64,000 bases of DNA, from assembly GCF_057098645.1 (NCBI RefSeq), contig NZ_CM169472.1; one strand, written 5' to 3'. A program made the translations under genes and the position numbers. Positions 13,928-14,566 of the stretch are shown one piece after another; position 1 is the first letter of the stretch; every line of letters starts with the position of its first letter. The notes under the pieces are model-generated. The model was given only the letters and a program-made list of their open reading frames with translations. It did no database searches and had not been told where the DNA came from.

Positions 13928-14365
13928 TCAAACCATCACCAGTGATAACTCTTTGCCAAGCGCCTTAGCCGCGAGCTGGACGGCGTCGATTTTTGTCGCA
14001 TGGTGCAAGTTAAATAAGCGAGTAATTTCCTGTTTAGGTTTGCCAATTCGCCTGGCTAACTCTTGCTGAGTGATTTCTGACTGTAAAAAAGCATTTAACA
14101 GCAATACCTTAGAGGCGACGCTCAAAGGTACTTCAATAAAATGATCGTGACTATTTAATGGCGAAGGTAACGGGATAAGCTCGTTATCTTCAAAATAAAA
14201 ATCAAATGCGGTCAGTAAAGCATCTTTTGCCGCTTCCATCGCTTCAGCGACAGTTTCGCCCTGGGTCAACGCTTCAGGGATATCCACAAAAGAAACCATA
14301 TAACCGCCTTCCGGCGCGGGTGTAAGAGTGACGGGATAACGCATAATTTCGACTGTCTCTCGCAT
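13928..14365 (-). CDS. hicB: HicB antitoxin (type II TA)
   Basis: 145-aa ORF immediately downstream of hicA; alternative start at MRYPVTL possible. Confidence 0.85.
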   Translation of the reverse strand: MRETVEIMRYPVTLTPAPEGGYMVSFVDIPEALTQGETVAEAMEAAKDALLTAFDFYFEDNELIPLPSPLNSHDHFIEVPLSVASKVLLLNAFLQSEITQQELARRIGKPKQEITRLFNLHHATKIDAVQLAAKALGKELSLVMV

Positions 14366-14389
14366 GTCATTAACCTTTTTAATTGGCGA

Positions 14390-14566
14390 TTAACTCAAAC
14401 CGAGTTGTTTCAGGATTGCTTTACGCAATGGTTCTTTAATCTCATCGCAGGGGTGACGCGGCATGACACTGCGCCTCCCATGAAACCTGAGTTTCAAATG
14501 GTTGCTGCCATTCGCTACATCGACGCCCTGAGATTCGAGCCAACGTCTGAACTCGCTTTGTTTCAC
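14390..14566 (-). CDS. hicA: HicA mRNA-interferase toxin (type II TA)
   Basis: Not in ORF track (58 aa). GTG start; translation begins (V/M)KQSEFRRWLESQG… and ends …LKQLGLS*. Confidence 0.8.
   Translation of the reverse strand: MKQSEFRRWLESQGVDVANGSNHLKLRFHGRRSVMPRHPCDEIKEPLRKAILKQLGLS

Follow-up and report, generated by a model that had tools for sequence, protein, structure and literature searches.

The window analysed here, a stretch of DNA of 64,000 nucleotides, almost certainly carries an intact chromosomal copy of the Escherichia coli hicAB operon, a type II toxin-antitoxin module in which the toxin gene comes first and whose mechanism is that described in strain K-12. The two genes lie on the same (minus) strand, with hicA upstream of hicB, and the interval that the first-pass annotation had assigned to a type II pair (13928-14566) has the stop codon of hicB and the start codon of hicA as its exact ends. 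Pfam profiles, identity to crystallised proteins and RefSeq annotation all bear out that assignment. The operon is already known and well characterised: its structures, RNase activity and two-promoter regulation have been published, and nothing in the window adds to them.

The hicA coding sequence (14390-14566, minus strand) comprises 58 codons and a stop codon, begins with GTG and specifies an mRNA interferase toxin carrying His23. Its GTG-initiated translation of 58 amino acids, taken from a listing of open reading frames of at least 30 amino acids, reads MKQSEFRRWLESQGVDVANGSNHLKLRFHGRRSVMPRHPCDEIKEPLRKAILKQLGLS. A Shine-Dalgarno sequence, GGGAGG, can be read on the minus strand at 14571-14576, 4 nt 5' of the GTG. 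No other codon could start the gene: an in-frame TGA is found 8 codons upstream (14593-14591) with no start codon in between, and the next in-frame methionine is residue 35, downstream of the catalytic His23. The length and start codon given by the first-pass annotation are therefore those of the open reading frame, and GTG is also the start annotated in K-12 and used in an Arsenophonus homologue (see below). Absence of hicA from the original listing had been ascribed to its size and its start codon together; at 58 amino acids the protein falls below the 60-residue default of the listing program run here, so that size alone would explain the omission and the GTG need not be invoked.

Both proteins scored above the gathering cut-offs of their Pfam families in the HMM search that had been proposed as a check. 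HicA scores 30.9 bits (cut-off 27; E = 3e-7) with HicA_toxin (PF07927), residues 5-57 aligning to positions 3-58 of the 58-position profile, and is identical at 58 of 58 residues to chain A of PDB entry 6HPB. Residue 23 is the histidine of the motif NGSNH23LKL, the catalytic position named in the literature. The protein is small and made up of a single domain; its fold, taken here from the identical crystallised chain 6HPB_A, is described for the E. coli protein as resembling a double-stranded RNA-binding domain, with an alpha-beta-beta-beta-alpha order of elements. In the RefSeq model, hicB (13928-14344, minus strand) starts at the second ATG of its reading frame and encodes 138 amino acids, with an N-terminal HicB domain and a C-terminal helix-turn-helix (HTH) domain. 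The longest open reading frame (13928-14365, minus strand) starts at the first ATG and encodes 145. In the numbering of the 145-residue form, residues 10-74 match HicB_lk_antitox (PF15919; 32.8 bits, cut-off 27) and residues 95-141, at the C-terminus, match HTH_3 (31.4 bits, cut-off 23). The 138-residue form (residues 8-145 of the open reading frame) is identical to 6HPB chain B at all 138 positions, and the 145-residue form shares all 145 with 6U0I chain A. With complete identity to 6HPB_A and 6HPB_B and Pfam scores above the gathering cut-offs, a chance resemblance is excluded. An NCBIfam scan of HicA and HicB gave no match to either, which is uninformative beside the Pfam matches and the identity to PDB chains.

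Base-by-base comparison of positions 13850-14787 with K-12 MG1655 revealed 11 substitutions and no insertion or deletion. Eight of the substitutions fall in hicB, where all are synonymous, including a change of the stop codon from TAA to TGA; the other three lie downstream. The hicA gene, the spacer between hicA and hicB and the entire yncJ-hicA intergenic region are identical to those of K-12. Thus, the frame disruption in hicA that the first-pass annotation had named as the finding that would overturn its reading was not seen in this alignment, which contains no indels and yields identical proteins. When positions 13800-14800 were searched by megablast against 5,426 complete E. coli genomes, 5,416 of them yielded a match to the locus, the best being O145:H28 strains (99.9% identity), annotated with hicB, hicA, ydcR and yncJ; the annotations of O145 RM9872 and of K-12 MG1655 both give 177 nt for hicA and 417 nt (138 amino acids) for hicB. 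Given this identity of proteins and regulatory DNA, the published biology of the K-12 operon transfers to the copy in the window.

The RNase activity, its neutralisation and the two-promoter circuit are accordingly those of the K-12 literature. Reviews citing Jorgensen et al. 2009 describe K-12 HicA as a ribosome-independent mRNA interferase that causes growth arrest, and reviews name His23 as the catalytic residue of the E. coli protein. In E. coli HicB, an N-terminal partial RNase H-like domain packs on HicA and covers His23 in an A2B2 complex, and dimerisation through the HTH domain leads to DNA binding. The complex of the identical HicA and HicB is seen in the crystal structure 6HPB (chains A and B). 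The E. coli literature further reports that HicB is degraded by Lon. As for transcription, the reviews and a paper on Haemophilus toxTA attribute two promoters, P1 and P2, to K-12 hicAB. P1, the upstream promoter, carries a CRP-S site and is Sxy-dependent, and both genes are expressed from it; HicB represses P2 at an inverted-repeat operator, hicO, and excess HicA relieves the repression. These statements on promoters and operator come from open-access reviews and the toxTA paper, as they summarise the primary studies. Transposed to the window, free HicA would cleave mRNAs independently of translation and arrest growth, and HicB would bind it one-to-one, as A2B2, burying His23. A dimer of HicB, sitting through its HTH domain on an inverted-repeat operator, would repress P2, the promoter proximal to hicA. 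The mRNA made from the CRP/Sxy-dependent P1 would be translated into both proteins, while P2 would start too near the hicA ribosome-binding site for its mRNA to yield anything but HicB. Excess HicA would free HicB from the operator, and P2 would then selectively replenish the antitoxin.

Candidates for the operator and for P2 are present upstream of hicA. A custom scan of positions 14560-14800 for palindromes with arms of at least 6 bp returned a single one, GTAAACA-CTAA-TGTTTAC, with perfect 7-bp arms (14599-14616). It lies directly upstream of an extended -10 sequence, TGATATACT, read on the minus strand at 14585-14593; the -10 element is 18 nt before the GTG and has no -35 hexamer. The DNA of the palindrome is identical to that of K-12, in which HicB binding was reported. 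We infer that the palindrome corresponds to the published hicO and TGATATACT to P2. As about 0.2 palindromes with 7-bp arms are expected by chance in 240 bp, the candidate hicO owes its assignment to position and literature, not to statistics. A transcript from the candidate P2 is predicted to start near 14578, about 7 nt after the -10, on the 5' margin of the Shine-Dalgarno sequence of hicA. P1, from the literature, must lie in the remainder of the yncJ-hicA intergenic region (14617-14787, minus strand), which is identical to K-12. A scan upstream of hicA for CRP-S sites (TGCGA-N6-TCGCA) and for the CRP consensus produced no convincing match, the best having 6-7 of 10 core positions. A promoter and terminator scan of 13800-14850 detected neither a promoter upstream of hicA nor a terminator; the candidate P2 was missed by this consensus scanner because it lacks a -35 hexamer. 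An inverted-repeat search of 14540-14800 was negative at the length settings used, and an Rfam search of the whole window showed no RNA family in or adjoining hicAB. A comparison can be made with a divergent E. coli allele, in which HicA carries 3 substitutions and HicB several: all 110 of the 110 nt upstream of its hicA are identical to the window. This identity, maintained next to diverged coding regions, suggests that the regulatory DNA 5' of hicA is under constraint.

The position of the hicB start codon is the point at which a different reading retains some plausibility. The hicA stop codon is separated by 24 nt (14366-14389) from the first hicB ATG, at 14365, and by 45 nt from the second, at 14344. 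The first-pass annotation had placed hicA 25 bp upstream of hicB on the same strand; both genes are indeed on one strand, the minus strand, and the distance is close to the 24 nt that precede the first ATG, but the curated start is 45 nt away. The two ATGs bracket an in-frame extension, MRETVEI, of 7 codons (14345-14365, minus strand). Were the first ATG the true start, HicB would be a 145-residue antitoxin and the 138-residue annotation would be 7 residues short. The one Shine-Dalgarno-like sequence, AAGG at a spacing of 8 nt, belongs to the first ATG, and none is found within 5-10 nt before the second; moreover, AAGGTTAAT at E. coli hicB resembles GAGGTTAAT, found immediately before the hicB ATG of the Arsenophonus homologue. 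In the divergent E. coli allele the first ATG is still present and in frame, although the lone change in its extension is non-synonymous (E to K). The 145-residue form is able to fold, having been crystallised as 6U0I; the shorter form, for its part, is the one crystallised in 6HPB and the one annotated by both RefSeq K-12 and PGAP. The Pfam HicB profile, moreover, begins only at residue 10 of the 145-residue form. Homologues encoded by Arsenophonus, Variovorax and Paraburkholderia plasmids also argue for the shorter protein: they are 138-139 amino acids long and start with MFYP, MFSYP or MLSYP, comparable to MRYP here, and in the Variovorax gene a stop codon is found 2 codons upstream of the equivalent start. 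From sequence alone, the longer antitoxin seems the less likely of the two, though a serious contender. Alternatively, both starts (14365 and 14344) may be used, giving two HicB isoforms in vivo.

Two other toxin genes occur in the window: ortT (6289-6462, minus strand; 57 amino acids) and hokB (30026-30175, plus strand; 49 amino acids), both intact. The first-pass annotation had counted three toxin genes within about 24 kb; the count is correct, and the outer span from ortT through hicA to hokB is 23,887 bp. Rfam detects sokB (RF01794, 97.5 bits) at 29880-30031, where it overlaps the hokB start, and the small RNA RydC (RF00505, 89.3 bits) at 30591-30654. The proximity of three toxin genes, with sokB detected beside hokB, could be taken to indicate that ortT, hicAB and hokB make up a functional toxin or defence island. 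That interpretation appears very improbable. The three toxins belong to unrelated classes, OrtT being an orphan membrane toxin, HicA a type II RNase and HokB a type I membrane peptide. Between them lie intervals of roughly 8 kb and 15 kb, filled with core metabolic and transport genes (ydcSTUV-patD, ydcR, rlhA, sutR, tehAB, opgD, trg and others), with no mobile-element or defence genes among the genes between the three toxins. K-12 shows the same ortT-hicAB-hokB layout. By a rough estimate, a few dozen toxin-antitoxin loci are scattered over a genome of 4.6-5.4 Mb, and a chance cluster somewhere is unremarkable. The three-toxin cluster is thus regarded as coincidental, with no sign of a functional link.

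Decay of hicAB is common in the species, and only about 60% of the 5,426 genomes have an intact hicA, but it is exceedingly unlikely that the operon in the window is itself a decayed, non-functional remnant, as it carries neither of the two deletions described below, both of its open reading frames are full length, its proteins are those shown to function in K-12 and its upstream DNA is that of K-12; a pseudogene reading was rejected on the total lack of indels relative to K-12. By megablast coverage, the full-length locus is present in 4,217 of these 5,426 complete genomes, and a 50-nt hicA probe (14410-14459) is present in 3,268. The states of the operon over the same genomes were apportioned as about 60% intact, about 17% frameshifted and about 22% deleted, figures that are estimates from megablast coverage and not a curated census. 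Two recurrent deletion alleles account for the roughly 40% of genomes without an intact hicA. One has lost 22 bp (window positions 14424-14445) flanked by a TGCG microhomology; its hicA is frameshifted, and labelled so by PGAP, and its hicB is intact. The other has lost 445 bp (14166-14610), and with them hicA, the candidate P2/hicO and hicB sequence at the 5' end. It could be that the retention of an intact hicB in genomes with the 22-bp deletion reflects a selectable role of HicB as a regulator in its own right. The rough census, in which no more than about 60% of complete genomes of the species have an intact hicA, is a minor by-product of this analysis.

Several further features were noticed outside hicAB. 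In the pdxI-paaY intergenic region, a 175-bp segment (49192-49366) is reverse-complemented relative to O145 RM9872, with 100% identity and colinear flanks. A search for inverted repeats of at least 10 bp flanking 49192-49366 found none. No genome among the 5,426 complete E. coli sequences covers the surrounding interval (49050-49500) in one collinear match, and the orientation of the segment is absent from all of them in the sense that none has a single collinear match. The same 175-bp sequence is an unannotated multi-copy element, found in 2-6 places per genome. Its orientation at 49192-49366 might stem from an inversion that arose naturally, from an artefact of assembly or from a change that was introduced. 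A second difference from O145 RM9872 is an insertion of about 1.3 kb in the ynbD-ynbC region (40806-42112), preceded by a 6-bp target duplication (40800-40805). It contains two overlapping minus-strand open reading frames, of 108 and 296 amino acids, and an ALIL frameshifting pseudoknot identified by Rfam (41662-41778). This insertion is an insertion sequence of the IS3 family, which we take to resemble IS629. The annotation of a near-identical O145 reference records a truncated ydcY (approximately window 5973-6203) and, over approximately 53600-63150, a frameshifted paaC and internal stops in feaB and feaR; that reference also lacks a portion of the paa operon, between paaF and paaX. From its annotation, there are signs that phenylacetate and phenylethylamine catabolism is decaying in the lineage.

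With respect to hicAB, the finding is real but ordinary. A small, GTG-initiated toxin gene was correctly called, and the three-toxin cluster in which it occurs needs no special explanation. E. coli hicAB being among the best-characterised toxin-antitoxin modules, the importance of the observation beyond correct annotation is small.

The closest known system is the K-12 operon itself (hicA b4532, hicB b1438; PDB 6HPB, 6HPC and 6U0I), which has the same proteins and the same GTG start. The flanking genes are also the same in K-12 and in the window, ydcR on one side and yncJ and rlhA on the other; the genomic background of the window, unlike that of K-12, is O145:H28-like (99.9% identity). According to a review, E. 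coli hicAB is the only system in which the two-promoter circuit has been demonstrated. A more distant relative is found on plasmid paNv_CAN4 of Arsenophonus nasoniae (WP_135679093 and WP_135679091). There, too, the toxin gene comes first, and HicA has 58 amino acids, begins VKQSEF and is initiated at a GTG preceded by GGAGG, as in E. coli. The Arsenophonus HicB likewise has 138 amino acids and an HTH domain, but is only about 43% identical to its E. coli counterpart. A palindrome adjoins the -10 element upstream of hicA in both organisms; that of Arsenophonus differs in sequence (GCTAATTTT-N8-AAAATTAGC), and its -10 is further from the Shine-Dalgarno sequence than in E. coli. The Arsenophonus operon is plasmid-borne and has an intergenic gap of 65 nt, whereas the E. 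coli copy is chromosomal. HicA3B3 of Yersinia pestis and the HicAB systems from Burkholderia pseudomallei and from Streptococcus pneumoniae share with E. coli the toxin fold and the catalytic histidine. As in E. coli, the N-terminal domain of their HicB proteins masks this histidine, and autorepression is exerted at palindromic operators. They diverge in the DNA-binding part of the antitoxin: HicB of Y. pestis, B. pseudomallei and S. pneumoniae has a ribbon-helix-helix domain and forms tetramers or octamers, whereas the E. coli protein, as found in the window, has an HTH domain.
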